Of a DNA stretch of 24,000 nt, positions 1,173 through 18,521 are shown one piece after another. Source of the stretch: Dehalococcoidia bacterium (GTDB taxonomy: Bacteria; Chloroflexota; Dehalococcoidia; Tepidiformales; Tepidiformaceae); contig DAOTTM010000019.1 of assembly GCA_034437915.1 (NCBI GenBank), forward strand, positions 17,691 to 41,690, read 5' to 3'. The first letter of the stretch is position 1; each line of letters begins with the position of its first letter. The notes under the pieces were generated by a model that worked only from the letters and a program-made list of their open reading frames with translations, was not told the origin of the DNA and did not search any database. The position numbers were made by a program, and so were the translations under genes.

Positions 1173-1772
1173 TCAATGGCTGATGACGTTCCGCGACGGA
1201 TCCTTGTAATCGTAAAAGACGACCTCGTCTGTTGTCGTGTCCCAGGCCGCGCACGAGAGCTGATACTCGTTGCGGTGGTCGCGCGCATCGCCGGCGGAGC
1301 CGGGGTTGATAACGAGTACCCCACCAAAACGCTGCGCCATCTGGAAGTGCGTGTGGCCAACGATGACGGTATCACATTCCAGGCTCGCGGCCTTGCTCCA
1401 GACGGCCTCGTGGGGGTAGTGGTAGTCCTTCCACGGCTCCCAGGGCGAACCGTGCGTCATCAACACGCGCTTGCCATCGACGACCTCCTCGAGGCGGTAC
1501 GGCTGTCCGCGCATCCAGGCGACGAGGTCCTGGTCGATCTTTTCGGACGAGAGGGCGCGCACACCATCGACGCCCAGGATCGTCTCTTCGTGGTTCCCCA
1601 GGACAACGCGCGCATCGAGCTCCCGCAACCGCCCGATCACTTCGTTCGACCAACGAAACTGAAACACCGCGTCGCCCGCACACCACAACTGGTCGAACGG
1701 CGCCATCAATTCCAGCGCCCGGTTGAGCCCCGCGAGGTTGCAATGGATGTCGGAGACGATGGCAAGGCGCAT
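1173..1772 (-). CDS. Metallophosphoesterase (YfcE/MJ0936-like calcineurin-fold phosphoesterase)
   Basis: 199 aa. Full motif set is present: SDIH (DxH), GDAV (GD), GNHE, a central His, GHTH. ATG at 1772. Confidence 0.85.
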   Translation of the reverse strand: MRLAIVSDIHCNLAGLNRALELMAPFDQLWCAGDAVFQFRWSNEVIGRLRELDARVVLGNHEETILGVDGVRALSSEKIDQDLVAWMRGQPYRLEEVVDGKRVLMTHGSPWEPWKDYHYPHEAVWSKAASLECDTVIVGHTHFQMAQRFGGVLVINPGSAGDARDHRNEYQLSCAAWDTTTDEVVFYDYKDPSRNVISH

Positions 1773-1774
1773 GG

Positions 1775-2302
1775 CTAGATCCGAGATCCGAGATCCGAGA
1801 TCCGAGTGGGCTCGGAGTTCCGAGCGCCGGTGTTCGAAATCCGAGAGCGGGAATTCTTCTGGATCACTTGCCCATCAGCCAGCGTGCGCATAACCGACGA
1901 ATGTAGACCCCCGATGATGCGGCCGATCTCGTCAATCTGAGCTTTGAGTTCGTCGAACTGCATTTGAGCGAGGTACCCTACGTCCAGAGCCACGTAGAGA
2001 TGCGAACCGACTTCGGCACACGACGCCTTGGCGATGAGCAAAAAGTGCGCGAAGTCGGCCTGACTCCTGCGCTCGAAACCCTCGGCGATGTTCGCCATAA
2101 TTGACACCGCCGTACGGCGAACCTGATCCCGTAGCCCAAAGTCGCGGTCGAATGGCTGCTGGGGGGTGACGACATAGATGTCCCGTGTGAGAACACGCGA
2201 CTTCTGCCACGCCACCAAGTCTTCATATTTTTGAATCGCAGCCACTTCAAACTCTGCCCTCGGAGCGCACTCGGTTCTCGGTTCTCGGATCTCGCTACTC
2301 AA
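1775..2302 (-). CDS. Four-helix-bundle protein (TIGR02436 / 23S rRNA intervening-sequence protein family, Avd-like)
   Basis: Family hallmarks: [18 protein letters not shown] ... [54 protein letters not shown]. The track start is TTG at 2302. A GTG at 2245 (GAGGG upstream), giving [10 protein letters not shown], is a more likely start. Both ORF ends are translated heptamer repeats (SEIREPRTE..., ...RISDLGSRI). Confidence 0.85.
1777..1806. repeat. Tandem heptamer array (AGATCCG)x4 plus a partial unit
   Basis: Read directly from the sequence. Immediately preceded by CTAG. It lies 5 nt from the metallophosphoesterase start codon and forms the 3' end of the four-helix-bundle ORF. Confidence 0.9.
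2270..2294. repeat. Tandem heptamer array CTCGGTT CTCGGTT CTCGGAT CTCG (inverted relative to 1777-1806)
   Basis: Read directly from the sequence. It abuts the TAG stop (2295-2297) of the norQ-like gene. It is the reverse complement of the CCGAG core of the left array. Confidence 0.9.
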
Positions 2303-3179
2303 AAATACTCGTCACCACTTCTTCGATGCTGCGCTGCACTTCCTGGTCGTCCGTGAGGGACCAGGTGATGGCGACCTGGCAGGCGCGGCGGGGGGCGACG
2401 CCCTGGGCGATGAGGCGTCCGGCGTAGATGAGGAGGCGCGTGCTCACGCCCTCGCCGAGGCCGTGTTCGCGCAGGTTTCGCACCTTCTCGCCCAGTTTCG
2501 AGAGGTCGAGCGCGGTCTCGCGGGAGCAGTCGGCTTCATGGGTGATGATCTCCGTTTCCTGGTCGCGTGGGGGGTAGTCGAACTCGATCGAGATGAAGCG
2601 CTGACGCGTGGAGTGCTTGAGATCCTTGAGGGCGCTCTGGTAGCCCGGGTTATAGGAGATGACGAGGAGGAAGCCTTCCGCCGCCTCGATCACCTGTCCC
2701 AGCTTCTCGATTGGGAGCAACCGCCGGTAGTCCGTGAGGGGGTGGATGAGGACGGTCGTGTCCTTTCGCGCCTCGACCACTTCGTCGAGATAACAGATGG
2801 CGCCAACCTTCACCGCGCGGGTGAGGGGGCCATCGATCCAGCGCGTGCCGTCGGTATCGAGGAGGTAGCGGCCAACGAGGTCGCTGGCGGTGAGGTCCTC
2901 GTGGCAAGCGACGGTGATCAGCGGCATGCGATGGACAGCTTCCTTACCGGTCTCCTTCGATGTGCGTGTCACGGGGCGACCGAGGCGGTGCGCCATATAT
3001 TCGACGAAGCGCGTCTTGCCGCAGCCCGTCGGCCCCTTGAGCAATACGGGGATGCGCTGGGCGTATGCCGTTTCGAAGAGGCTGACCTCGTCCGAGATTG
3101 GCAGGTAGTACGGCTCTTCGCTGACTGTATACTCTTCGGCCGCATGAATCTTCGCCGAAACCATCACTGAATTACCCAT
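2295..3179 (-). CDS. CbbQ/NorQ/NirQ/GvpN-family MoxR-type AAA+ ATPase
   Basis: Walker A GPTGCGKT and Walker B AICYLDEV. Family-typical YNPGYQ and STRLLIYAG segments. I place the start at ATG 3179 (GGAGGT 5 nt upstream, [12 protein letters not shown]...), not at the track start 3266, which would overlap coaE. Confidence 0.85.
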
Positions 3180-3183
3180 GCAG

Positions 3184-3801
3184 TTACCTCCCGGCTGCTT
3201 TTCGCAGCCGCTCCTCAAGTTTGTCCCAGGCGGCCTGGATGCCCGATTCAAGGGCCGCCAGGTCACTGTTGTTCTCTATAACGATGTTCGCCTTTGCGAC
3301 GCGCTCAGCGTTCGAAAGCTGCGATGAGATGCGCGCGCGCGCCGCCGCCTCATCGAGATTGTTGCGGGTCGCGAGACGTTGGACGGCGAGGTCCGGTTCG
3401 ACCACTACGACCCAAACTTCATCGACAAGATCTTGCCAGCCAGCTTCGAAAAGCACGGCTGCTTCGAGTACGGCCAGGTGGTTGCCCGCAGTCTCCAACT
3501 CGGAGAGAGCCTCGCTGGCGAGCTTGCGGATGCCTGGCCAGACGATATCCGTGAGCTTCTTCAGCTCTTCCGGCTTGCCAAACACCTTTCCGCCGAGCAC
3601 GCGGCGGTCGATGGACCCATCGGCGGCGACAAGGTCCGGTCCAAAGGCGGCGACGACGGCGTTGAACGTGTCCGTGTCAGGGTCGTATGTGCGGTGGCCA
3701 AGCACGTCCGCGTCCAAAACGGGCACTTCACGCGACTTGAAGAAAGTGGCAAGGGTCGATTTGCCGCTGGCGATCCCGCCAGTCAGCCCGATGACGTGCA
3801 A
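3184..3801 (-). CDS. coaE: Dephospho-CoA kinase
   Basis: N-terminus (M)[16 protein letters not shown]-loop followed by LDADVLGH; about 205 aa, typical for CoaE. TTG start with GGAGA upstream. Its stop lies 4 nt before the norQ-like start. Confidence 0.85.
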
Positions 3802-3881
3802 ACGCGGTCTCCGGTGATTGGAAATTTAGTCGAACGCTAAGGATACGGCGCGGGGCTATGGGGCGGCAAACGGACGACTAG

Positions 3882-3909
3882 AGCCGAGGTCCGAGATCCG
3901 AGATCCGAG
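3882..3909. repeat. Tandem heptamer array AGCCGAG GTCCGAG ATCCGAG ATCCGAG
   Basis: Read directly from the sequence. Immediately preceded by CTAG, as at 1777. Confidence 0.9.
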
Positions 3910-4107
3910 TTGGCGTGCACCCGGTGAGTTCGAGCGCTCCGCAGGCTTGGGAGCAAGCCCCAGTGGTTGCCATAATTGCCTTCGCAGACGGTCACTGTCG
4001 CATAGGGTTCGTCTTTCGGGGGCCGCACTAACCGGACTCCCTTTGCCCGGAACGACTGCTTAGTCGCGATCGAAGTCGCCTTTCTCCAGGAAGAAAAGAC
4101 GCGCCGA

Positions 4108-4139
4108 CTCGGAACTCGGAACTCGGTTCTCGGCTCTCG
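4108..4139. repeat. Tandem heptamer array CTCGGAA CTCGGAA CTCGGTT CTCGGCT CTCG (inverted relative to 3882-3909)
   Basis: Read directly from the sequence. It ends 2 nt before the stop codon (4142-4144) of the LysM/SLT gene. Confidence 0.9.
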
Positions 4140-4141
4140 CG

Positions 4142-4987
4142 TCAGCTGTATTTCGCCGTGAAGAAGAGCACGTTCGACACGTATTCCCGCGTCTCCTGGA
4201 ACATGCCGAAGCGTTCAATGCTGCGCCAGCCCTGGTAGTAGAAGCCGAGGGCGAGGGGGATATCGCCGTTCGCCTGGTCGATCATGTGGCTGAGGATCGC
4301 GGCGCCGATGCGGGCGTTGTCACGCGCCGAGATGCGCCAGTTGGACGCCGTCGGCAGGAGGAACTCGACGGCCCAATCGCCCGTGTCCGGCGTGACCTGG
4401 AGCAAGCCCACCGCGCCCACCGAGCTGACGACGTGCTGCTGCCATCCACTCTCGATCCATGCGAGTCCGAGGACGAGGCCACGTGCCAGGCCGAACTCAT
4501 CGGCTGCATTGCGGAGTAGCTGTTTCGCGTCGGCCTGGGAAACGACTTCAGGCACGCCGTCGGGCGACGGCGGGATCGAGAGCACCTGGCCGACCTCGAT
4601 GACGTCCGGGTTCTTCAGCCCATTGGCATCGATGACGGCGCCGAGGGAGACGCGATAGTGGGTTGCGATCCAGCCAACCGAATCACCGCGTTCGACCACG
4701 TGGACGCGCACGACCGGGCTGACGGTCTGGTTGATGCGCAGCACCTGGCCCGCGTGGATGCGGTCGATGTCGGCGATGTTGTTCTCTTTGGCGATGGCGT
4801 CCATGGGCACGCCATAGTGGTCGGCGATGACCGAAAGGGACTCGCCGGGCTGGACGATGTGCGTTTGTGCGGCGAACGCGGCTGCCGCCTGGAGGGCGAC
4901 CAAGGCCGCCACGGCGACGATTACGAGCTTGAGGAACCTGCCAGAAAGGGCAGTTCGCACCGTTCCCAAGTGGGACTTACCTGACAT
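4142..4987 (-). CDS. Exported LysM-repeat lytic transglycosylase (2x LysM + SLT domain)
   Basis: N-terminal hydrophobic anchor/signal. Two LysM repeats (HIVQPGESLSVIADHYGV...; HVVERGDSVGWIATHYRV...). SLT catalytic region LAWIESGWQQ ... GLLQV. Confidence 0.8.
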   Translation of the reverse strand: MSGKSHLGTVRTALSGRFLKLVIVAVAALVALQAAAAFAAQTHIVQPGESLSVIADHYGVPMDAIAKENNIADIDRIHAGQVLRINQTVSPVVRVHVVERGDSVGWIATHYRVSLGAVIDANGLKNPDVIEVGQVLSIPPSPDGVPEVVSQADAKQLLRNAADEFGLARGLVLGLAWIESGWQQHVVSSVGAVGLLQVTPDTGDWAVEFLLPTASNWRISARDNARIGAAILSHMIDQANGDIPLALGFYYQGWRSIERFGMFQETREYVSNVLFFTAKYS

Positions 4988-5105: not shown

Positions 5106-5648
5106 TCATTCTCCCGTTAACGAGAGCAGGATCTTGAGAACCTCCCCCTCGGGAAGCGCGTGCCGAGGTTCCATGTTCAAGGTGAACCCGCGAGACGCCG
5201 TGAGAAGCGTGTAGCCGACGACGAAATCCGACTCGTACCGAAGGACGCGAATCCCAGCCTTGCCGGTCTCGATGGCCAGGCTCCGCTTCTCATCGAAGGT
5301 GAACGGCGAGTTCGTCTCGTCCAGGCCGAACCCGAGATTTCCGGGCACGTTCATCATCACAATCTTGAAGCCCCGCTGCGCACGCGGGTCGAGGTTCACA
5401 TAAATAGACGACACCGCGGCGTCGCCTCCGCGCTGGAACATCGCCACGGTGACGGTTGTCCCAGCGCAAGAGGCTGGTAGGCTGGCCTCAACGATGACTT
5501 CCTTGTCCTCGGCAACGACGTACAGTCGCTTCGCTGTCGGCAGGACGGTTGATTCGGGCGCTTGCGCGAACACCGGGCCGACGCTTGCTGCGAGGACAGC
5601 TAGACCGATTGCAGCGATGGTTCTGACGAACGGGCAAGACGAGAGCAT
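5106..5648 (-). CDS. Exported hypothetical protein, paralog A
   Basis: Signal peptide (AAIGLAVLAASVGPVFAQA). The C-terminal half aligns with the next gene: RGFKIVMMNVPGNLGFGLDETNSPF ... ASRGF ... EVLKILLS. Confidence 0.7.
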   Translation of the reverse strand: MLSSCPFVRTIAAIGLAVLAASVGPVFAQAPESTVLPTAKRLYVVAEDKEVIVEASLPASCAGTTVTVAMFQRGGDAAVSSIYVNLDPRAQRGFKIVMMNVPGNLGFGLDETNSPFTFDEKRSLAIETGKAGIRVLRYESDFVVGYTLLTASRGFTLNMEPRHALPEGEVLKILLSLTGE

Positions 5649-5818: not shown

Positions 5819-6355
5819 TTAGTTCAGCGGGAACGAGAGGAGAACCTTGAGCACCTCGGCCTCATCGACGACATCCGCCGTGTCGAAACTCATGACGAAG
5901 CCACGAGTGGCGGTGAACATCGTGTAGGACACCAGCGGAGCTGACGCATCACGATACACCCGGACCCCGGGTTCCTTGACGGGGATGGCCACGAACGCCT
6001 CGTTTGGGCTGAAGGCTGAGTTCGTCTCCTGAAGTCCGAATCCCGGCTTTCCGGGCACGTTGATCATGACCACTTTGAATCCGCGCTGGTTCGGATCAAC
6101 GTAAAGGGTCGTTATTTGCGAATTTTGGGGGAGATACCCCGGTGCGACCACCGTGAACCCTGCCAAACCCGAGGCCTTGTCGAGCGCGGCCTGGAGGGAT
6201 GGCTCCTGGGCCACAGTCACCAGGCCCTCCCGAAGGTCGAGAGACTCGGCACTCTTTGAGCCTCTTGTTAGCAGGCCGACCGTCAGTGCGCCGCCAACAA
6301 TACCCACCAACACGATTCCCAGGAACAATCGATGCCTAACGGCAAACAGCTTCAT
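5819..6355 (-). CDS. Exported hypothetical protein, paralog B (PGYLP-containing, reminiscent of DUF4367/LolA-like domains)
   Basis: N-terminal TM/signal segment. GFTVVAPGYLPQN, then RGFKVVMINVPGKPGFGLQETNSAF ... ATRGF ... EVLKVLLS, matching paralog A. The family name comes from memory of motif style only. Confidence 0.7.
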   Translation of the reverse strand: MKLFAVRHRLFLGIVLVGIVGGALTVGLLTRGSKSAESLDLREGLVTVAQEPSLQAALDKASGLAGFTVVAPGYLPQNSQITTLYVDPNQRGFKVVMINVPGKPGFGLQETNSAFSPNEAFVAIPVKEPGVRVYRDASAPLVSYTMFTATRGFVMSFDTADVVDEAEVLKVLLSFPLN

Positions 6356-9634: not shown

Positions 9635-10969
9635 TCACCGCCCGCGGCCTGAGGCGGTGGGATGCTTCTGGCCCACCGGAGTGGTCCTGAGCGCTTCCCG
9701 GAACGTCGCAATCGCGCGTAGGCGCGCCTCGCGGTGGTCGACGATGGGCGCCGGTTGTGGCTCTGTTCCCAGCCACGCCGAACGATAGCTGCCCGTGGGG
9801 TCGAAGCGCGCCGCCTGGAGTTCCGGGTTCATCACCCGGAAATAGGGGGCGGCATCGGGACCCGTCGAGGCGGACCACTGCCATCCCAGCGAGTTATTCG
9901 CCACGTCACCATCGATCAGCTGGCGCATGAAGAACGCGCACCCCTCTCGCCAGTCGATGAGAAGGTCCTTGGTCAGGAAGGACGCGGCAACCATGCGCGC
10001 TCGGTTCGGCATGAAGCCCGTGCGGGAGAGCTGACACATCGCAGCGTCGACTAATCCGAACCCGGTCGTACCGGTTTGCCATCGCACAAGGGCCGCTGGG
10101 TCTCCGCGCCAGGCCACGCGGTCGTACGCCGGCTTGAGTGCGGCGTCGCGGAGACCTGGAAAGTGCCAGAGGAGGTAGGCCGCGAACTCTCGCCACGCGA
10201 GTTCGGACACGAACTTTTCGCTTCCGCGACAGGCCGCGAGAACTTCGATGGGAGACAGCAGGCCGAACTTGAGATCCTGGCTGAGGCGAGACGTGCCCTC
10301 CCGGCCGAGGTCGTCTCGCGCGTCTGCGTACTCCGCGAGGCGTTGGTCGGCGAACTTCCGCAGGCGTCCACGGGCTGCCCGCTCGCCCGGCTCAGGTGCC
10401 TGCTCCGGCTGTTCCGTTTCGACGTGCATGATTTGGAAGGGCGGACCTTCGCTCGCGGGAATGTCCAAGGTCCCAGCGCGAACAAGAGGGCGCGGTTCGT
10501 TCAGCATAAATCGGCGATGGAAAGCCGAGAACACTGTAAACGGCGCGCCAGTCTCGTTGGTGATGGAGGCCGGTTCGGTTATCAGGACTCCAGGATGTTC
10601 AACGAGTCGGACGCCAACATTCGCGAGGGTTGCAGCGACGTCGGCGTCGCGGCTCCGCCCATATGGCGCATAGTCACGGCTGACGTGTACCGATTGCGCC
10701 TCCATGAAGGTGACGAAGCCCGCCACGACCTGGCGCGGATTCCCGGTCACGACTGTCAACGGCACGCCAACGGTGGCCAACGACTCCCTCAGTTCTGCGA
10801 GCGACCCGAGCAAGAACCAGTTTCGCCTGGGCGACGACGATTTGCCGTTCGTCAGGACCGGGTCGATCACGAACAGGGCGCGCGGATTGCCTTCGCGCAA
10901 TGCCGCAGCTAACGCCGGGTGGTCGTGGACCCGAAGGTCACGGCGAAACCACACAACGGAACCGGACAT
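9635..10969 (-). CDS. phr: Deoxyribodipyrimidine (CPD) photolyase, class I type
   Basis: VVWFRRDLRVHDHPAL N-terminus. WREF and DGDVANNSLGWQW FAD-binding segments. The start is taken as ATG 10969 (MSGSVVWF), which overlaps the upstream stop as TGATG. Confidence 0.9.
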   Translation of the reverse strand: MSGSVVWFRRDLRVHDHPALAAALREGNPRALFVIDPVLTNGKSSSPRRNWFLLGSLAELRESLATVGVPLTVVTGNPRQVVAGFVTFMEAQSVHVSRDYAPYGRSRDADVAATLANVGVRLVEHPGVLITEPASITNETGAPFTVFSAFHRRFMLNEPRPLVRAGTLDIPASEGPPFQIMHVETEQPEQAPEPGERAARGRLRKFADQRLAEYADARDDLGREGTSRLSQDLKFGLLSPIEVLAACRGSEKFVSELAWREFAAYLLWHFPGLRDAALKPAYDRVAWRGDPAALVRWQTGTTGFGLVDAAMCQLSRTGFMPNRARMVAASFLTKDLLIDWREGCAFFMRQLIDGDVANNSLGWQWSASTGPDAAPYFRVMNPELQAARFDPTGSYRSAWLGTEPQPAPIVDHREARLRAIATFREALRTTPVGQKHPTASGRGR

Positions 10970-12405
10970 CAGCCGACCTGGACGGTCGCGAGCCACTCAG
11001 CGCGCTGCGCCATCGCCTTCGGCGTTCGCGAAAAGATGGACCCATGGGCCGGGGAGATAGCATACCAATAAAGCAGGCCCAAGATGCCAGCGGGGTGGAA
11101 GCGTGCCGTCATGGTCAATTCCGACGAATCTGGCCCGGTCGGGCTCACAACGAACTCCAGTACCGCAGCACCGGGGAGTTTCATCTCCGCGACGAGCGTG
11201 AGGCGTTTGCCCTCCTCCACGGCCGCAACGCGCCAGAAGTCCACGGCATCACCGACGTGCAGACGAGTCGGATGGCGTCTGCCGCGTCGCATGCCAACGC
11301 CTCCAAGGAGGCGGTCCATCGCCCCCCGGAGACGCCATAGCCCATCACCAAAGTAGTAGCCGCTGCGCCCACCGATGGACGAAACCACGCTCCATGTTGC
11401 GCTGGCCGGAGCACGAACGGGAACCGTCGTCGCCGTCCCCTTCGAATAGAACGAGACCGTCGGGTCGTACCCGCGAAAGGCGAGCGAACCCTCCGTCCAC
11501 CGAGCCACCACGGCGTTCGCTCGCTCATCTTCAAGGGCACGCCGGACGGCCTCGCGGTATGGCGTCAGCGGGATTGGGATGAGTCGCCGAATTTCACCGT
11601 CATTCGGCAGAAGGTCCTGCTTCAAACCGTCGATCAGGGGTCGTGCGATGGAGGCTGGCACGGCGGTGACGAGATCGAGCCAATACGACGAAATTCGGGG
11701 GGACAGCACCGGCACGGGAATGATCCATTGGCGACCCCCGCCGGTGACCTCCGCGAACTGTTTCATGAGGTCACGATAGCTCAGGGTCTCCGGGCCACCG
11801 ATATCCAGGGTCATCCCACCTGTCGATGGCACCGCAAGCACGCCGACGAGGTAGGCGAGGAGATCGTCCATGGCGATAGGCCGAGAACGCGAAGTGACCC
11901 ACTTTGGGGTGATCATCACGGGCAAGTGGTTCACGAGGTCACGAATGACTTCGAACGCTGCCGAACCAGCGCCAACGACCATGCCCGCCCGCAGCTCGGT
12001 CACAGCCACGGACCCTCCGCGTAGCAGCTCTCCCGTTTCTCGGCGAGACCGGAGGTGCTCGGATCCGGCCGACTCCAGGCCTCCAAGGTAAATGATTCGA
12101 GTCAGTCCGCAGTGCGCTGCGGCTTCGCGGAAGTTTGTTGCCGCAAGGCGGTCGCGAGCAGCGAAATCGCTCCCAGAGCCCATCGAATGCACCAGGTAGT
12201 AGGCGACTTCGATTCCCTCGAGGGCGCGTTCAAGGGATGCCCGGTCGAGCGCGTCCGCCTCAACTAATTCTACGCCCGCCCAACCTCGGCCTTCGAGAAC
12301 GGCCCGTCTGCGCGCCACCGCCCGGACGGTGTGGCCTTCGGCAATCAACCGCGGGACGAGGTGCGAACCCACGTAACCACTTGCTCCGACTACCGCCACG
12401 CGCAT
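10969..12405 (-). CDS. NAD(P)-binding SDR/NmrA-like protein with C-terminal DUF2867-type domain
   Basis: Rossmann motif VVGASGYVGSHLV. Length about 478 aa, with a long C-terminal extension typical of SDR+DUF2867 fusions. ATG 12405 is preferred over the track TTG at 12411. It sits 2 nt after the upstream stop. Confidence 0.75.
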   Translation of the reverse strand: MRVAVVGASGYVGSHLVPRLIAEGHTVRAVARRRAVLEGRGWAGVELVEADALDRASLERALEGIEVAYYLVHSMGSGSDFAARDRLAATNFREAAAHCGLTRIIYLGGLESAGSEHLRSRRETGELLRGGSVAVTELRAGMVVGAGSAAFEVIRDLVNHLPVMITPKWVTSRSRPIAMDDLLAYLVGVLAVPSTGGMTLDIGGPETLSYRDLMKQFAEVTGGGRQWIIPVPVLSPRISSYWLDLVTAVPASIARPLIDGLKQDLLPNDGEIRRLIPIPLTPYREAVRRALEDERANAVVARWTEGSLAFRGYDPTVSFYSKGTATTVPVRAPASATWSVVSSIGGRSGYYFGDGLWRLRGAMDRLLGGVGMRRGRRHPTRLHVGDAVDFWRVAAVEEGKRLTLVAEMKLPGAAVLEFVVSPTGPDSSELTMTARFHPAGILGLLYWYAISPAHGSIFSRTPKAMAQRAEWLATVQVG

Positions 12406-12407
12406 CT

Positions 12408-13298
12408 TCAAGACCCCTTACCCAGGGCCGCCCTGATTCCAGACTCGATTTCGCCAAACTGAAACTGGAATCCGCTGGCCACGAGCCGAGTCGGAACCAC
12501 GCGCTGGCTGGCGAGCAGAAGTTCGTCAGCCGAGCCTCCGAGCAGCAACCGCAAGGCTATAGGGGGTACGGGGAACAGCGCGGGCCGGTGAAGCACCTTC
12601 GCCAAGGCCCGAGTGAACTCTCGGTTGGTCACCGGTCCCGGCGCAGTCACGTTAAGCGTTCCCTCGGTGCCCGTGTCGAGGACGTACTGGATTGCCCGAA
12701 CGACGTCATCCAAAGCCACCCACGACATCCACTGGCGCCCGCGGCCCAGCGTCCCGCCCGCGCCAAAGCGAAAGGGCAACATCATGCGGGGAAAGGCCCC
12801 GCCATCGCGCGAAAGCACGACGCCGAAGCGCAGGATTGCAGTACGCAATGCGTCCTGGCCTTCCTTCGCCGCTTCCTCCCAGGCCGTCGTGATATCCGCG
12901 AGAAATCCCGTTCCCCGCGCGGATTCCTCCGTGAGAACAGCGTCGCCTCTGTTTCCGTAGTAGCCTACAGCCGAGGCGCTGACGAACGCCGGGGGCTTTG
13001 GCAGCTTCAACAAATGCGACACGAGCAAGCGCGTGGGTCCTACGCGGCTCTCCAGCAGCTCGCGGCGGCGGGATTCCGTCCACCGGCCTTCCCCAATGGA
13101 CGCACCGGCAAGGTGGACGACCGCGTCGATGCCCTCGAACGCTCCGGGGCGAATCCACCCGCTCGCGGGATCCCATGTCGACCCGGCCTGTTCGGCGGCG
13201 CCGCGCACAAACGGTACGACGCTATGCCCATTCGCTTGAAGATGGCTTCCCAAAGCCGTTCCGATGAGTCCCGTACTGCCGGTAATCGCAACGCGCAT
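12408..13298 (-). CDS. TIGR01777/YfcH-like (SDR39U1) epimerase-family NAD-binding protein
   Basis: MRVAITGSTGLIGTAL Rossmann motif. VVHLAG, YYG, and a C-terminal DUF1731-like end (RVVPTRLVASGFQFQF). Confidence 0.8.
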   Translation of the reverse strand: MRVAITGSTGLIGTALGSHLQANGHSVVPFVRGAAEQAGSTWDPASGWIRPGAFEGIDAVVHLAGASIGEGRWTESRRRELLESRVGPTRLLVSHLLKLPKPPAFVSASAVGYYGNRGDAVLTEESARGTGFLADITTAWEEAAKEGQDALRTAILRFGVVLSRDGGAFPRMMLPFRFGAGGTLGRGRQWMSWVALDDVVRAIQYVLDTGTEGTLNVTAPGPVTNREFTRALAKVLHRPALFPVPPIALRLLLGGSADELLLASQRVVPTRLVASGFQFQFGEIESGIRAALGKGS

Positions 13299-13337
13299 AA
13301 TTGGAGTCCTGTTCTGGGCGGTTCATGGCCGACCCGA

Positions 13338-14138
13338 TTAATTCGGCTGTAGCGTACCTGCGTAGACCTGCCAGGCAAGCAGTGACTTGGCTGTCAGGCT
13401 CAGGAGAATGTAAACGAACTCACCGAATACATAGTTTCGCCACGGCCCAATGCGCCGGTATTGAAGCAGCATGTTGATGGCAAAGACGTTGAACACTGCG
13501 AACATCGACCCAAATATCCAGTACACGAAGGTCGGTGGGCCACCGCCCTCTCCACCCGCGCCAGCAAGGTAAATGGCGATCCCGAGCCACGGTACGATGC
13601 CCGCCACGCATCCAAAGATGTATGCCGTCCAATCCGTAGTTTCAGTTGACTGGTTGTGGCGCTCCATCATCCAGCCAAACAGGATCATCGTCGCGTTCAA
13701 CGTGAAGAACGCAAGGAGCGCCACCGCGTCGTAGATGCCAACCAGCATCGCGATCACGACGATCATGATGGACGAACTGAACGCGTATTCGATCCAACGA
13801 GCGTAGTTGATACCGCGAGCCAGATTCTTCTGGTACCAGCCGTACACCCCTGGCAAGGAAACTACGATGTGGGCGAGGGCAGAAAGGAGCAAAAAGCTCG
13901 CAATGACGGGGGCGAGGCGGACTTCGAAGAGCGTACGGAGCCTGGGCTCCAGCGCCTGGGTGCCCTCGTTCATCTCCACGAAAGCGCCCGTTACAGGTAG
14001 CGCGAAGTCACTGGCAATCGCGAGCATGATGGCGCCCTGCACGAAATGCAGGGCCGCCATTGAAAAGTTCCAGCGCCGGAGGTTTCGCGAAAACCCGGGT
14101 GCTGCTTGCGGCGCCGCGCTGAGCGTTTGGAAAGCCAT
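13338..14138 (-). CDS. Heliorhodopsin
   Basis: 266 aa, 7-TM. Collinear with my recollection of heliorhodopsin 48C12: RWNF..ALHFVQG (His31), SALAHIVVS (His90), ARWIEYAFSSSIMIV (counterion Glu117), ILFGWM, FGCVAGIVPWLGIAIY, YILLSLTAKSLLAWQVYAGTLQP (retinal Schiff-base Lys251, codon at 13388-13386). Confidence 0.9.
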   Translation of the reverse strand: MAFQTLSAAPQAAPGFSRNLRRWNFSMAALHFVQGAIMLAIASDFALPVTGAFVEMNEGTQALEPRLRTLFEVRLAPVIASFLLLSALAHIVVSLPGVYGWYQKNLARGINYARWIEYAFSSSIMIVVIAMLVGIYDAVALLAFFTLNATMILFGWMMERHNQSTETTDWTAYIFGCVAGIVPWLGIAIYLAGAGGEGGGPPTFVYWIFGSMFAVFNVFAINMLLQYRRIGPWRNYVFGEFVYILLSLTAKSLLAWQVYAGTLQPN

Positions 14139-14185
14139 AGCAACCCCCCGTGCGAGTTTTCGCTCTATTTCGCCTTATGGAGAAG

Positions 14186-14211
14186 GAGGAGGAGAGAAGT
14201 CACTCCTCCTC
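14186..14211 (-). terminator. Perfect 9-bp polypurine/polypyrimidine hairpin (GAGGAGGAG-N8-CTCCTCCTC) between the DUF4397 gene and the heliorhodopsin gene
   Basis: Read directly from the sequence. No U-tract follows on the minus-strand transcript, so it may be a processing or stability element rather than an intrinsic terminator. Confidence 0.25.
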
Positions 14212-14227
14212 GATGCTCCGGTTCGGA

Positions 14228-15103
14228 TTAGCGGTTGCGTCGGACGGCGAAGGTCAAACCGGCGCCACCAGCGACGAGAAGGCTCAAGGCTGTCGCCAGG
14301 AAGAGCGACGACATTGCGCTGTCGCTAGAGGCTGCCAGTCCCGTGCCTGTGCCTGGCGCGGAGACGGTCACTGGCGCTTTTGCATCGGCGAGCGCCACAA
14401 CCTGGAGGGACCCGTTACCGGCAAGGCCCACCGCGACCGCGGTATAGACGTTGCGGTCGGCGAGGGCCAGGCTCACCGTCTTGACGACCTTGCTATCAGA
14501 TGCGGTGCGGACCTCAAGGTCGTACGAACCCGCCGCGACCGGTGTGTAGGTGCCGACGCCTTTGAACGCGACGTTGCTAAATACCTTCGTTGCTGTCCCT
14601 GCGACGGTGACATCAACGGCTGGCGCATCCGGCGACGCGTGGATGAGACGAACGTGTGCTTTGCCCGCGGCCGGGGCAGCGTTGTTGTCTTCCAGCGGAA
14701 GAAGACCGAGCGTCGAATTGCTGAGTTGGCCGACCGCAAGGACCGTATAGTCCTTGCCCGCGGCAACCTGGAGATTGGCTTCGAGGGCAGGAGCGCCCGT
14801 GCCCGTCGAGGGTGAAACGAAGACTTTGACGTTGTGACTTCCCGCGGACAATGAGACATACCCCGTGTCCTTCGGGAACGCGAGAGCCGTGACGGCCTTC
14901 TGACCATCGACGAAGATGTCGACGGCCGGAGCATCCGGCGATGCATGCATGACCCTGACGCGGCCATTAGCGGGTGCCTGAGCCCCCGCGTTGCCGAACA
15001 CCAGCAGTGCGGCCATCGCGGCCAAAATGACGGCGATGACCATTGAGCGACCAACAGATCCGAGTGCCAAGATATTTCTCCCGTTTTTCAAATGGACTGC
15101 CAA
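14228..15103 (-). CDS. Exported DUF4397-like repeat protein with C-terminal membrane anchor
   Basis: Signal/anchor at the N-terminus. Two internal repeats (RVRVMHASPDAPAVDIFVDG... / HVRLIHASPDAPAVDVTVAG...), typical of DUF4397. C-terminal SAPGTGTG, a hydrophobic helix, then RRNR. Confidence 0.7.
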   Translation of the reverse strand: MAVHLKNGRNILALGSVGRSMVIAVILAAMAALLVFGNAGAQAPANGRVRVMHASPDAPAVDIFVDGQKAVTALAFPKDTGYVSLSAGSHNVKVFVSPSTGTGAPALEANLQVAAGKDYTVLAVGQLSNSTLGLLPLEDNNAAPAAGKAHVRLIHASPDAPAVDVTVAGTATKVFSNVAFKGVGTYTPVAAGSYDLEVRTASDSKVVKTVSLALADRNVYTAVAVGLAGNGSLQVVALADAKAPVTVSAPGTGTGLAASSDSAMSSLFLATALSLLVAGGAGLTFAVRRNR

Positions 15104-15139
15104 AGTCGGCCGACGCTGTTGCGTTAACCTTGACCATCC

Positions 15140-15210
15140 TTGTACAGACTATGCGTGAGCATGGGTCTGATGTCAAGTGTTTGCATAACTTTGGTACAAA
15201 GTGCTAGGCT
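15140..15210. promoter_or_regulatory. Back-to-back divergent promoters, each overlapped by a TTGTAC half-site (candidate LitR/CarH operator)
   Basis: Minus-strand promoter: TTGACA (15176-15171), N17, CATAGT (15153-15148). Plus-strand promoter: TTGCAT (15181-15186), N18, TAGGCT (15205-15210), which predicts a leaderless litR-like mRNA starting at ATG 15217. TTGTACA at 15140-15146 and its inverted copy GGTACAA at 15193-15199. Confidence 0.4.
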
Positions 15211-15216
15211 ACCGGC

Positions 15217-16083
15217 ATGCTCATGAGAATCGGCGCCCTCAGCCAACATACGGGCATCTCCGCCGAAGTACTGCGTTCTTGGGAACGGCGTTATGGCTTG
15301 CTCGAACCGGAGCGAACCGCGGGAGGGTTTCGCCTTTATACGGAAGACGACGTTCGGCGAGTGCTCCGCGTGAAGGCTCTCATCGCCGGAGGAGCCTCGG
15401 CTTCGCAAGCAGCGCACCAGGTGCTGGCTGACGCGCGCGACGAGACAGGAACCGGCTCAGCATCGGGAATCCCACCCACCAGTGAGTGCAGGGCCGCCCT
15501 GGCCGCTGCTTTCCGATCGCTCAGCAGTTCGTCCATTGAGGCAGCTGTTGACCTCGTCTTTGCCCGGCTGGACCTCGATAGCGCCATCCTGGATGTGTTC
15601 ATTCCCTGTCTGCGCGAACTGGGCGAAGATTGGTTCGACGGTCGCACGACGGTGGGCCAGGAACATGTGGCCGTTAACGCCCTTCGTGGCCGTCTCATGG
15701 GCTTGAGTCGAGGCTGGGACCGCGGGCTTGGGCCGCGGGTCGTGCTCGCATGCCCACCTGGGGACTATCACGACGTCTCCCTCATCCTTTTCGGGCTTGC
15801 GCTCCACCAACGTGGGTGGCGAGTGACATTCCTTGGCGCCGATACGCCCATCGAAACGCTGATTGAGGTTCGCGAAACACTGCGGCCCCGCATTACCGTG
15901 CTGTTTTCGGCCCAGTGGGCTACTCATCCAGGGCTGGCTGGCGGACTAGCCAGGCTCGCGACGGGACCAACTGCTCTCGCCGGTCCAAACGGAGCAAGTC
16001 TCGCCAAGCAGGCGGGCATTCGCTGGCTCCAGGGCGACCCTGTAGCGGAGGCTGATTCGCTCACGGAAGAATCCCGCGCGTAG
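15217..16083 (+). CDS. MerR-family regulator with cobalamin (B12)-binding domain, LitR/CarH type
   Basis: MerR HTH at the N-terminus (MRIGALSQHTGISAEVLRSWERRYGLLEPERTAGGFRLY). B12-binding module with W-x9-EH (DWFDGRTTVGQEHVAVNALR) and a DxH-type segment (PPGDYHDVSLILFG), followed by GWRVTFLGADTP. An alternative start is at 15223. Confidence 0.8.
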   Translation: MLMRIGALSQHTGISAEVLRSWERRYGLLEPERTAGGFRLYTEDDVRRVLRVKALIAGGASASQAAHQVLADARDETGTGSASGIPPTSECRAALAAAFRSLSSSSIEAAVDLVFARLDLDSAILDVFIPCLRELGEDWFDGRTTVGQEHVAVNALRGRLMGLSRGWDRGLGPRVVLACPPGDYHDVSLILFGLALHQRGWRVTFLGADTPIETLIEVRETLRPRITVLFSAQWATHPGLAGGLARLATGPTALAGPNGASLAKQAGIRWLQGDPVAEADSLTEESRA

Positions 16084-16172
16084 ATAGTTCCCGGTCGTTC
16101 GGTCAGCCCAATCGGCGACTCCCGCGAGCGCCGACATCTGCTGAGCGGAGACAGAAATGAGAAGAAAATTGT

Positions 16173-16249
<77 letters not shown>

Positions 16250-16332
16250 AGATTTCCGATGGTACCACGGCGGTGCGTACTGTGGACAAGGTTCCCCGGG
16301 CCGCCCCCGGACACAACGAATTGGCGCTTGGG

Positions 16333-17943
16333 TTAGGCGGCAGCCAGATTCGCAGAGCCACCCTGATCCCTGAGGTATGCCTCGAACTCGATCGGCGGGA
16401 CCGCGGGCGAAAGGAAATAGCCCTGGCCAGTGTGGACCCCCAAGGCCCGGAGGTAGTCGTGCTGCCAGGCCGTCTCGATGCCCTCCGCAGTCACCTGCAT
16501 CATCGATGCTTTTCCGAGGTAGACGATCGAGGCGACGATCGCGAGCGCTCGTTCGTCCCCCGGTCCTGTGAGCGGGCGCACGAACGACTGGTCGATCTTG
16601 AGCGTGTCGAAGGGCAGCTTGTGGATGTAGCTGAGGGACGAATACCCGGTGCCGAAGTCATCGATGGCGAGATGAACGCCGAGAACATGGAGGTCGTTGA
16701 GCGTCTCGATGCTGAGGCCCACATCGCGCATGACCACCGTCTCGGTCAGTTCGAGTTTGAGGTTGGCCGCGGACAGTCCAGACTCGTGGAGCGCGTCACT
16801 GACGTTCTGAACGAGGTCTCCGTGAAGGAGTTCCGTCGCCGAGATATTTACGGCGACCGTGAAATCGCCGGGGACATGGCCGTCCGAGATCAGCACCCGC
16901 AGATATTCGCACGCCTGGCCCAATGCCCAGGCCCCGATGCGCACAATCTCCCCGGATTCCTCTGCGATTTCGAGGAAGTCCGCGGGCATAAGCAAGCCGC
17001 GATGGGGATGGTTCCACCGGATCAACGCTTCCATACCGACCACTTCGCCACTGTGAAGGTCATGTTCCGGCTGGTAGTGGAGCGTCAATTGGCCCCGGTC
17101 TACTGCCCGACGCAGGCCGCTGTCCAAGCGCAGCCGGTCTTCGGACAGCTCGTCAATCTCCGGATCGAAGACAGCGAAACGGGCGCGCCCGTGTGCCTTG
17201 GCGCGATACACGGCGATATCCGCTTTGCGAAGGAGGTCGGCCGTGCTTGGATTCTCGTTCACGGCCACTCCCGCGCTCGTGGTCACAAACAATTCATGTC
17301 CGCCAACCTCATACGTGTGCGAGAGTGCGTGCGTCAACTGCTCCGCGAGCGCGATGCCACGGTCGCCAGCATCATCTCCCTGGACGATCGCACCGAACTC
17401 GTCGCCACCGAGTCGACCCACGAAAACGTCATCGCCGGCGGCGGCAAGGAAGCGCGCGGCGAGACTCGACAAGAGCACATCGCCGAGCGTATGCCCGAGC
17501 GTGTCATTGACGAGTTTGAAGCGGTCGATATCGAAAAAGAGCACGGCAACGCGGCCAGCCGCACCATCTTCGCCGAGGGCGCGGTCAAGCAGGGCCTTGA
17601 ACATGGCGCGGTCGGGCAGGCCCGTCAACGGATCGAATGACCCGCGGCGAGTGTCGCGTGTGAACACAGGACGTTCCGCGACCGGCGATGGAGTAGCCGA
17701 GGGCCGATCTAATGCCGTGGCCCCGACGGTGGACCTTTCGAGGGTGGGGGCGCCCATTCCGCTGGCGCGGGGACGCACCATGGCATCGAGCACCGCGTGG
17801 ACGAGCATGGCCGCTGCCACGACGGCAATCCACGGCGAGACAAGGCCACCAAAGCCAAGTGCCGAGAGACATGCCGCAGCCGCGCCGATGTACGATGTCG
17901 AAGCAATCAGCGGTCGATGATTCGCCCGAATCCAAAGAGCCAC
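16333..17943 (-). CDS. Membrane-anchored GGDEF-EAL protein (diguanylate cyclase/phosphodiesterase)
   Basis: N-terminal hydrophobic helices. DPLTGLPDR ... GGDEFGAIV (GGDEF domain). EALIRW ... DDFGTGYSS ... KIDQSF (EAL domain). Confidence 0.9.
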   Translation of the reverse strand: MALWIRANHRPLIASTSYIGAAAACLSALGFGGLVSPWIAVVAAAMLVHAVLDAMVRPRASGMGAPTLERSTVGATALDRPSATPSPVAERPVFTRDTRRGSFDPLTGLPDRAMFKALLDRALGEDGAAGRVAVLFFDIDRFKLVNDTLGHTLGDVLLSSLAARFLAAAGDDVFVGRLGGDEFGAIVQGDDAGDRGIALAEQLTHALSHTYEVGGHELFVTTSAGVAVNENPSTADLLRKADIAVYRAKAHGRARFAVFDPEIDELSEDRLRLDSGLRRAVDRGQLTLHYQPEHDLHSGEVVGMEALIRWNHPHRGLLMPADFLEIAEESGEIVRIGAWALGQACEYLRVLISDGHVPGDFTVAVNISATELLHGDLVQNVSDALHESGLSAANLKLELTETVVMRDVGLSIETLNDLHVLGVHLAIDDFGTGYSSLSYIHKLPFDTLKIDQSFVRPLTGPGDERALAIVASIVYLGKASMMQVTAEGIETAWQHDYLRALGVHTGQGYFLSPAVPPIEFEAYLRDQGGSANLAAA

Positions 17944-18023
17944 GATTCAGTTATCGGTTATGACGAGAATCACGATAGTTTCCACGTGAAGGCGAAGCAA
18001 ACACGCCTCACCCCGGCGAGTCA

Positions 18024-18440
18024 CTAACCGACGATTCTTACGCGCGATCGGGGCGACGAACGGTCGCACGTTGGGCAGTGGTAGACCAGGGTGAGACCGT
18101 GCCCACACTCCTTATCCACGATAGAGAGGTCGTGTTCGGCGAACTGTTCGCCCCAGCTCGCCAACGCGCCGACGACGACGCCAAGCGCGTGACCTTTCGC
18201 GGTGAGGATGTACTCCGCACGCGGCGGATGATCGCTGTAGAAACGCCTGTGGACGACGCCTTCGCGTTCGAGCAATCGCAGGCGGTCAGAAAGCAAACTC
18301 CCGGGCACGCCCTCAACGGTGCGGGCGAGTTCGGAGAAGCGTGTGCGGCCACGCAGGAGGTCGCGGACGATGAGCAGTGTCCAACGGTCGCCCACAACAT
18401 CGAGCGAGGAGGCGACGGGGCAGCGAACCGTGCGTGGCAT
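18024..18440 (-). CDS. HxlR-family transcriptional regulator with Cys/His-rich C-terminal tail
   Basis: CPVASSLDVVGDRWTLLIVRDLL..RTRFSEL ... RRFYSDHPPRAEYILTAKG is the HxlR signature. C-terminal KECGHGLTLVYHCPTCD. AGGTGA SD upstream of the ATG. Confidence 0.85.
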   Translation of the reverse strand: MPRTVRCPVASSLDVVGDRWTLLIVRDLLRGRTRFSELARTVEGVPGSLLSDRLRLLEREGVVHRRFYSDHPPRAEYILTAKGHALGVVVGALASWGEQFAEHDLSIVDKECGHGLTLVYHCPTCDRSSPRSRVRIVG

Positions 18441-18487
18441 GGTGTTTCACCTTTCGCCAACAATGCGATATGCTAGCAACGCGGAGG

Positions 18488-18512
18488 GGTTAGTCCAGAT
18501 TATGGACTAACC
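18488..18512. promoter_or_regulatory. Perfect inverted repeat GGTTAGTCCA-N5-TGGACTAACC in the hxlR-fbiC divergent spacer
   Basis: Read directly from the sequence: 10/10 complementary arms. It ends 9 nt before the fbiC GTG. Candidate HxlR operator or 5' UTR hairpin. Confidence 0.45.
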
Positions 18513-18521
18513 TATTCTGGG

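Follow-up and report, generated by a model that had tools for sequence, protein, structure and literature searches.

Among the described systems, those closest to the element reported here are the intervening sequences (IVSs) of 23S rRNA genes that bear an open reading frame (ORF), found in Coxiella, Leptospira, and others, in which an ORF of the PF05635 family lies within terminal inverted repeats that form a long stem, and of which ORF-decayed forms exist. In Coxiella, the S23p ORF (PF05635 family) is preceded by two or three tandem GACAGAT heptamers, their number being variable among strains, the terminal stem has 28 bp, and RNase III cleavage was mapped to the first heptamer (Warrier et al., 2016, PMC4990558). 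We have analyzed a 24,000-nt stretch of a Dehalococcoidia bacterium genome (GCA_034437915.1, contig DAOTTM010000019.1, positions 17,691 to 41,690), hereafter the window, where a four-helix-bundle (4HB) gene of this family is found at 1775-2297 between two inverted arrays of tandem heptamers, within an operon of protein-coding genes. This region, which we call cassette 1, is one copy of a widespread class of small-gene cassettes and represents an mRNA-resident variant of the ORF-bearing IVS. PF05635/S23p proteins are very common, and we know of no function established for them besides that of Avd in diversity-generating retroelements (DGRs).

The two arrays were detected by Tandem Repeats Finder (TRF), on the plus strand, as AGATCCG (4.3 copies, 1777-1806, 100% match) and CTCGGTT (3.6 copies, 2270-2294, 94% match). 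A repeat finder placed them in inverted arms that are 88% complementary over 26 nt (1774-1799 / 2270-2295) and, when the degenerate continuations are included, 84% complementary over 43 nt (1782-1824 / 2252-2294). The ORF enclosed by the arms belongs by curated threshold to PF05635 (E 3.4e-36, 124.1 bits with a cut-off of 33.8, residues 27-131 of a 175-aa ORF) and to TIGR02436 (E 1.1e-33, 115.7 bits with a cut-off of 24), and its product contains the conserved motif G..R...S...N..E. These repeat and profile searches bore out the original prediction, made from the letters of the window, that inverted heptamer arrays bracket a 4HB gene. The motif CCGAGNNCCGAG has 11 matches in the 24-kb window vs 0.17 expected from shuffles, and all 11 are confined to four arrays, i.e., the cassette 1 pair and a second pair at 3880-3909 / 4107-4133 that belongs to another cassette (cassette 2, see below).

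Cassette 1 occupies the whole spacer between a norQ-like gene and a metallophosphoesterase (MPE) gene. Its 5' array adjoins the norQ-like stop codon (2295-2297) with a gap of 0 nt, where 1 nt had been predicted, and 4 nt, instead of the predicted 5 nt, separate its 3' array from the MPE ATG (1770-1772). The 3' arm sits within the 4HB reading frame, and thus the 156-aa product consists of a core domain (approximately residues 4-116) and a translated 3' arm that makes up the final ~25-40 residues. The 4HB stop codon TAG (1775-1777) is followed 2 nt further on by the MPE ATG, at the base of the predicted stem. The GTG at 2245, in the extension of the 5' arm, was set as the start codon by the alignment of homologues and by a metagenome gene call, and since it lies downstream of the heptamer array, the N-terminus is not repeat-encoded; the claim that both ORF ends are translated repeat therefore holds for the C-terminal tail and fails for the N-terminus. 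The minus-strand RNA spanning 1760-2310 has a minimum free energy (MFE) of -231.5 kcal/mol (z = -3.6 vs shuffles), and the arrays form the closing helix in both the MFE and the centroid structures, which is the outcome anticipated for a fold of the paired arrays. The predicted stem extends to the MPE start codon, in agreement with the suggestion that it would cover the initiation region of this gene. We consider it rather probable that the arms pair in the operon transcript.

This anatomy is that of the ORF-bearing IVSs as far as the stem is concerned, since the 43-nt, 84% complementary arms of cassette 1 form a closing helix. The location is different: cassette 1 lies in an mRNA operon spacer and not in helix 25/45 of 23S rRNA, its flanks are protein-coding, no rRNA was found in the window with Rfam, and the Rfam search gave no match at 1600-4300. 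Furthermore, the ORF of cassette 1 is intact and conserved, its arms adjoin the neighboring stop and start codons, and its 3' arm is translated. The term IVS-like is thus an analogy, which we consider well founded because the Coxiella IVS has the same anatomy. A PADLOC search gave no match. The coordinates of the two cassettes and of the surrounding operon genes are collected in Table 1.

Table 1. Positions in the window of the two cassettes and of the genes next to them.
Feature	Coordinates	Strand	Definition and evidence
Metallophosphoesterase (MPE), downstream operon gene	1173-1772	-	Pfam Metallophos_2, E 4e-25
4HB gene	1775-2245	-	GTG start 2245, TAG stop 1775-1777, 156 aa; PF05635, TIGR02436
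3' arm of cassette 1	1777-1824	-	(ATCTCGG)n array 1777-1806, degenerate continuation to 1824; TRF, inverted repeats, folds
5' arm of cassette 1	2252-2294	-	(CCGAGAW)n array 2270-2294, degenerate continuation to 2252; TRF, inverted repeats, folds
norQ/MoxR-like AAA ATPase (AAA_5 + CbbQ_C), upstream operon gene	2295-3179	-	Pfam; ATG 3179 from L001 gene calls and orthologues
coaE	3184-3801	-	
3' arm of cassette 2	3878-3909	-	(ATCTCGG)-type units, ending CTCTAG; TRF, pattern search, fold
Interior of cassette 2	3910-4106	-	Weak remnants only
5' arm of cassette 2	4107-4139	-	CCGAGNN units; TRF, pattern search
LysM/SLT gene	4142-4987	-	

It might be argued that the 4HB protein is the accessory protein Avd of a DGR and that the repeats are part of this retroelement. 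DGR Avd (bAvd) proteins belong to the same fold superfamily of pentameric four-helix bundles, and the product of cassette 1 does show a weak similarity to the models PF22296 (bAvd, 28 bits) and NF033474 (DivGenRetAVD, 26.8 bits). Both scores fall under the curated cut-offs (40 and 80 bits, respectively), so that the assignment was rejected. In addition, neither a reverse transcriptase (RT) nor a template/variable repeat (TR/VR) pair was found in those window genes that were scanned, and the 4HB gene stands alone, flanked by housekeeping operon genes that are conserved in relatives without the cassette. We consider this possibility extremely improbable. The nearest solved structure is 2GSC (XCC0516, E 3e-16); this entry and 2RLD, another solved homologue, contain five chains each, the likeness being one of sequence only, and XCC0516 has been described as a homopentamer (PMC4990558). 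A 97%-identical copy of the 4HB gene differs from it by three synonymous and three nonsynonymous changes, too few for a dN/dS estimate.

The arrangement seen in cassette 1 is a trait of the family. We have examined 80 metagenome loci encoding 4HB relatives at 48-63% identity, 69 of which had enough flank for a test of the arms, where complementarity was scored by local alignment against shuffles because RNAduplex energies were uninformative, being large for long inputs regardless of the partner. The arm complementarity exceeds every shuffle in 48/69 loci. Most of the 80 loci have period-7 arrays on both sides of the gene, mutually inverted, and the array density is 2.9 per kb in the flanks vs 0.36 per kb elsewhere in the same loci, i.e., eight-fold higher. 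The unit varies between loci but matches across the arms, as in TGAGTGC/GCACTCA, TGAGGAC/GTCCTCA, TGAGCAA/TTGCTCA, and AAGAGTG/CACTCTT, and many arms are made of heterogeneous units in which GAG is held in the 7-nt phase. Translated arrays can also be recognized in the proteins: homologues at 52-60% identity have C-terminal tails such as TRNSELGTRN and SELGPRNSE, and one homologue has the N-terminus STEYRVPRTEYRV, TRNSELG being encoded by (ACTCGGA)n and STEYRVP by (CCGAGTA)n. None of the 80 loci contains rRNA.

The same array-4HB-array design was seen in five phyla. In Xanthomonas, an XCC0516-type 4HB gene lies between accB and accC with arms of the GGGAATC type, the 3' arm touching the accC ATG. 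The arms pair GGGGAAA with TTTCCCC in Nostoc, AAGGTTY with RAACCTT in Riemerella, and TTAGCTG with AAAGCTA in Calothrix. On a plasmid of Picosynechococcus sp. PCC 7003 (L226 1162-1591), an inserted 4HB gene separates cas10/cmr2 from cmr3 in a type III-B operon, and its arms have an 8-nt period (GGAGATAA with TTATCTCC). Earlier papers report an association of PF05635 genes with cas loci (PMC3936711; PMC10910872), and the cmr2-4HB-cmr3 arrangement may be a case of hitchhiking that explains this association. In all, complementary G-rich 5' and C-rich 3' arrays of about 7 nt recur around a PF05635 gene that is co-oriented with its neighbors and is absent at some orthologous sites.

These absences are best seen at the site of cassette 1 itself. 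The gene order coaE-norQ-MPE-VWA is conserved in relatives, where a large VWA protein gene begins after MPE, and it defines an operon of Dehalococcoidia-type Chloroflexota with which cassette 1 is co-oriented, all genes from LysM/SLT to MPE being on the minus strand. A comparison with orthologous norQ loci lacking the insert, one of the checks that had been proposed, found the norQ-MPE spacer empty in L205 (37 nt) and in L208/L209 (33 nt), and filled in the window, L206/207, L210/211, L212, L213, and L214/215. In L222 (1696-1904), the spacer contains a truncated remnant of 209 nt, in which a (CTGAGTT)n 5' array and the first ~45 4HB codons are joined directly to the 3' array, the arms being no longer complementary. 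The finding of one spacer empty, filled, or truncated among relatives confirmed that the cassette is a discrete unit. In a neighbor-joining tree built from CoaE, NorQ, and MPE together, both empty sites have a filled site as their sister, which implies at least two clean losses or several gains. The nearest 4HB relatives of the window (P0002, P0004, and P0007) are all found at the same norQ-MPE site, suggesting a long vertical persistence. The L222 locus hints at cassette replacement, since its host-gene DNA is ~20% different from that of the window (~80% identical) and its 4HB fragment is 56% identical to the 4HB of the window and 80% to P0043, the unit type being also different. We consider it very probable that these cassettes constitute a discrete, array-bounded class that is gained and lost, and the gain, replacement, truncation, and loss at one site suggest a selfish or mobile element.

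The filled sites also reveal co-variation of the arms. All six fold with an arm helix of 32-53 bp, and their heptamer units vary from one orthologue to another, with the partner arm changed to match; in L214 the arms mirror each other at 27/28 positions, and its mixed units (TT, GG, TT) match in mirrored order. In the filled orthologues the 4HB ORF crosses the 3' arm and stops where the host gene starts, with an ATGA/GTGA overlap or a 2-nt gap. The slippage of heptamers invoked by the original prediction found no support, as the copy number is identical in the window, L001, and L221, three near-identical contigs.

Cassette 2 is located in the LysM-coaE spacer, 1.6 kb away from cassette 1 and in the same orientation. 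Its 5' arm begins 2 nt past the LysM/SLT stop codon, and its 3' arm ends 76 nt upstream of the coaE start. The termini of the two cassettes are 89-92% identical (5' terminus GCGAGA..CCGAG.., 3' terminus ..CTCGG..TCTAG), and the fold of cassette 2 (z = -4.4) has the arms as its closing helix. The interior of ~200 nt gave no significant match to the 4HB profile; it contains the weak, collinear 4HB remnants SWRKATSIA, FDRD, and SAKAIMA, distributed over three frames, none of them individually significant. Judging from these remnants, what lies between the arms is probably a 4HB gene that has decayed and has undergone frame-shifts and internal deletion. Cassette 2 is wholly missing from the relative L205, which has 43 unrelated nt instead.

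Sigma-70-like sites (…CATAAT) were noticed on the antisense strand at a homologous spot in both cassettes (2073-2101 and 3947-3976, plus strand). They overlie the conserved I-M-A-N codons and are probably incidental to this coding motif.

This patchy distribution could also be produced by a mobile element that acts at the DNA level, its arrays being terminal inverted repeats or protein-binding sites on DNA that are used by a recombinase or transposase acting in trans, or by the 4HB protein itself, and the RNA stem being a by-product. Presence, absence, and truncation at one site fit such an element, as do the decayed copy resembling a MITE (miniature inverted-repeat transposable element) that is cassette 2, also absent from L205, and the ~80%-identical host genes of L222 and the window, whose cassettes have 4HB sequences just 56% identical and units of another type. 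Nevertheless, no target-site duplication was seen at any inspected junction (window, L206, and L210-L214), no transposase, integrase, or reverse transcriptase is encoded in the window, viral contigs contain no relatives, and the sharing of one site by the nearest 4HB relatives of the window suggests long vertical persistence.

The polarity of the arms speaks on the same question. On the sense strand, the upstream arm is in every case the one rich in G (G>C in 66/66 elements), and in 62/66 it is purine-rich. Stop codons are distributed asymmetrically: 5' arms have 12.6 stop triplets per 100 nt, with all three frames closed in 34/54, whereas 3' arms have 1.0 per 100 nt, with every frame open in 43/54. 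The cassettes are also oriented with their neighbors, the upstream gene being co-directional in 56 loci vs 8 and the downstream gene in 50 vs 17. The strict polarity and the stop asymmetry would be unexpected for symmetric terminal repeats and favor a role that depends on the strand, in RNA or in translation; the strong co-orientation also counts against a DNA-level element. A DNA-level element is for these reasons an unlikely explanation of the arrays.

In 31/75 loci the 4HB stop codon is overlapped or directly followed by a start codon (ATGA in 22); the ORF opened there is either a short bridging one or one that crosses the 3' arm and continues in frame into the host gene. We propose that each cassette is an IVS-type unit, gained and lost as such, that rides in an operon. 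In the order of transcription it would comprise a G- or purine-rich 7-nt array, a short leader, a PF05635 4HB gene of ~120 aa, and a complementary C- or pyrimidine-rich array; having no evident promoter of its own, it would be transcribed with the operon. The arms would then pair into an imperfect helix of 25-45 bp, which would leave the 4HB ORF in a loop and cover the region where the following gene starts; this helix would resemble the one that RNase III cuts in the ORF-bearing 23S rRNA IVSs. Ribosomes crossing the stop-free 3' arm would melt the helix and pass to the downstream start codon, and in the window the 4HB ORF would carry out this hand-over itself, as it ends 2 nt before the MPE ATG. 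The insertion would be tolerated because translation through the 3' arm is handed to the downstream start, and the cassette would be dispensable, as expected of a unit that is gained, replaced, truncated, and lost at one site. We regard the translational hand-over as rather probable, the RNase III cleavage of the arm helix, proposed by analogy, as tentative, and the explanation as a whole as evenly poised.

In several loci (L194 3366-3430, L183 1300-1365, L138, L162, L168, L176, and L203) the host gene appears to start at the cassette ATGA. These host genes encode GDP-mannose dehydratase-like and RmlA-like proteins and epimerases, which gain a 15-60-aa N-terminal extension from the stop-free 3' array; in some of them a native start codon is not evident and has seemingly been lost.

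Several observations weigh against the proposed explanation or parts of it. The RNase III step is carried over entirely from the rRNA IVSs. A plain stem needs no 7-nt periodicity, so that the period is not accounted for. The coupling signatures appear in only ~40% of the loci, the 5' arm of cassette 1 does not contain the stop codons otherwise typical of the family, and the cassette yielded no promoter or terminator evidence for or against. The mismatches of the arms comprise 33 that are G·U-compatible on the sense strand, 45 compatible on the antisense strand, and 117 of the transversion type; with no excess of sense-strand G·U, selection on pairing at the RNA level is not demonstrated, and this lack of bias counts in favor of a DNA-level element. 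The register of the repeat alignment is ambiguous, which weakens the test both ways. The lack of target-site duplications, transposase, and reverse transcriptase also counts here, since because of it mobility can be inferred only from the patchy distribution. Finally, in a genome scan (one genome per species, at least four CCGAG heptamers) that returned at least 120 stretches from many phyla, a 4HB gene was found by tblastn and HMM searches near only three of those listed, and most of the arrays listed are solitary. The arrays are therefore not diagnostic of a cassette, and the association that the original prediction expected from such a scan stands in one direction, that is, 4HB genes carry inverted arrays (48/69) but arrays do not predict 4HB genes. 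Among the stretches listed, 22 are accompanied, at a distance of up to 1.5 kb, by an inverted partner, which in many cases is 40-250 nt away with no gene in between; such gene-less pairs may be decayed cassettes, as the L222 site illustrates, and they would suit a DNA-level element as well.

The abundance of arrays raises the question of coincidence, i.e., whether heptamer simple sequence repeats (SSRs) born by slippage in intergenic DNA merely flank the 4HB gene. Heptamer SSRs are over-represented in bacteria according to work cited in PMC4692102, and CCGAG arrays are frequent in many phyla and for the most part solitary, at least among the matches listed. Chance flanking would not lead one to expect the restriction of the motif to four arms within the window, the complementary arms in 48/69 loci, the eight-fold enrichment in the flanks, the co-variation of the arms, their invariant polarity, or the same design in five phyla. 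Coincidence is thus strongly disfavored and very improbable.

The constancy of the period is a point in favor of a different role for the arrays, namely, that they are putative RNA-binding sites for a ring-shaped 4HB oligomer, each 7-nt unit being contacted by one subunit, much as TRAP binds GAG repeats, with the complementarity of the arms being secondary and the outcome being autoregulation or control of the neighboring cistrons. The 7-nt period is kept while the units differ (GAGNNNN, GGGAATC, GGGGAAA, AAGGTTY, and GACAGAT in Coxiella), and where the units are mixed, GAG stays in phase. The typical array has 3-5 units, which is to be seen beside the five chains of each of the two solved homologues. 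The Avd relatives are pentamers that bind nucleic acids and RT, which also counts in favor of this role. Such binding leaves unaccounted for why the second arm is an exact complement in mirrored order; moreover, ORF-less remnants keep both arms, and one lineage has an 8-nt period. We find this role of the arrays quite improbable as an alternative to the pairing of the arms in an IVS-type cassette.

A broader conjecture would combine elements of both. The rRNA IVSs might be only the minority, resident in rRNA, of a family of cassettes that hitchhike in operons across phyla and whose ring-shaped 4HB protein recognizes the 7-nt arms, one unit per subunit, and controls or mediates excision and spread at the RNA level, possibly recruiting a reverse transcriptase like Avd does. 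This is speculative, and we would give it little credence at present. If it were true, much of the surplus of heptamer repeats in bacteria would stem from cassettes that have decayed into inverted pairs without a gene or into solitary arrays, and the links of PF05635 with cas operons and others would be explained as spurious.

The comparison with other repeat-bounded elements helps to delimit the class. Xanthomonas genomes contain GGGAATC heptamer arrays, including 70-75 convergent pairs per genome, which were read as G-quadruplex-forming SSRs and were not tied to a gene family or to mobile elements (Rehm et al., 2015, PMC4692102). Like the arms described here, they are tandem heptamers, mostly of ~4 units, that lie in intergenic regions between co-oriented genes, and we have found such a pair around the XCC0516-type 4HB gene that separates accB from accC. 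A G-quadruplex was rejected as a general explanation of the arrays, since those of the CCGAG and CTGAG types contain no G-tracts. The STRR heptamers of cyanobacteria and the TAACTGA repeats of Beggiatoaceae are also intergenic tandem heptamers, often ending just before a start codon, but they are direct repeats, with an inverted partner in 1/170 sets of the Beggiatoaceae genome, and no 4HB association has been reported for them (PMC4679880).

With MITEs and REPINs the cassettes share a short, intergenic, multicopy nature, inverted repeats at the ends, and the existence of non-coding remnants (cassette 2 and L222). They differ in that their arms are tandem heptamers of fixed polarity and in that full-length cassettes encode a protein that is not a transposase; cassette 1 has inverted termini without a target-site duplication, and no cognate transposase is encoded in the window. 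Integron cassettes are likewise promoterless, co-directional single-gene units transcribed by the host, but they have an attC hairpin 3' of the ORF and an integrase, both lacking in the 4HB cassettes, whose repeats lie on both sides of the ORF and whose insertion sites are scattered operon spacers. Our search of full texts outside the subscription literature found no description of array-bounded 4HB cassettes as a class, as the original prediction had supposed, although an earlier description may exist; parts of the design had already been published, namely, the heptamers of the Coxiella IVS and the inverted pairs of Xanthomonas, neither of them tied to a 4HB cassette in general.

How the rRNA intervening sequences arose has been an open question since the 1990s. 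Should mRNA operon spacers be the main home of the cassette across phyla, this origin and the function of PF05635 proteins would both become testable in tractable organisms, and the Xanthomonas accB-XCC0516-accC locus is a tractable example whose protein already has a crystal structure. The build of the family, with a frame-closing 5' arm, a translated and stop-free 3' arm, and a host start codon that the cassette overlaps, suggests a way in which selfish inserts escape polar effects. Heptamer repeat pairs that were published without an explanation are now linked to a gene. As for annotation, the PF05635 genes of cas operons and others may have hitchhiked there and not be accessory components, and the array-encoded N- and C-terminal extensions of proteins may be mis-annotated.

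Some minor observations concern the arrays and the surroundings of the cassettes. Long solitary CCGAG arrays of 12-17 units, with neither a 4HB gene nor an inverted partner, are found in Streptomyces, Desulfobacterales, and others (L012, L037, L095, and L103, among other loci). Two Logan contigs (L003/L004, position 1) begin exactly within the 3' array, suggesting that assemblies break at the repeats, and in one metagenome contig (L001 1248-2132) norQ is split into two ORFs relative to the window. Upstream of the LysM/SLT gene, two tandem paralogues of ~180 aa with hydrophobic N-terminal segments (5106-5648 and 5819-6355, both on the minus strand) have the common motifs …VMMNVPGNLGFGLDETNSPF… and …VVMINVPGKPGFGLQETNSAF…. 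A light-related gene cluster extends over 9635-21032 and encodes a photolyase (9635-10996, minus strand), a heliorhodopsin (13338-14138, minus strand), a CarH/LitR-like regulator with MerR and B12-binding domains (15217-16083, plus strand), a GGDEF-EAL protein (16333-17943, minus strand), and a radical-SAM fusion of the CofG/H type (18522-21032, plus strand); a tRNA gene lies within the same region (16176-16249, minus strand).

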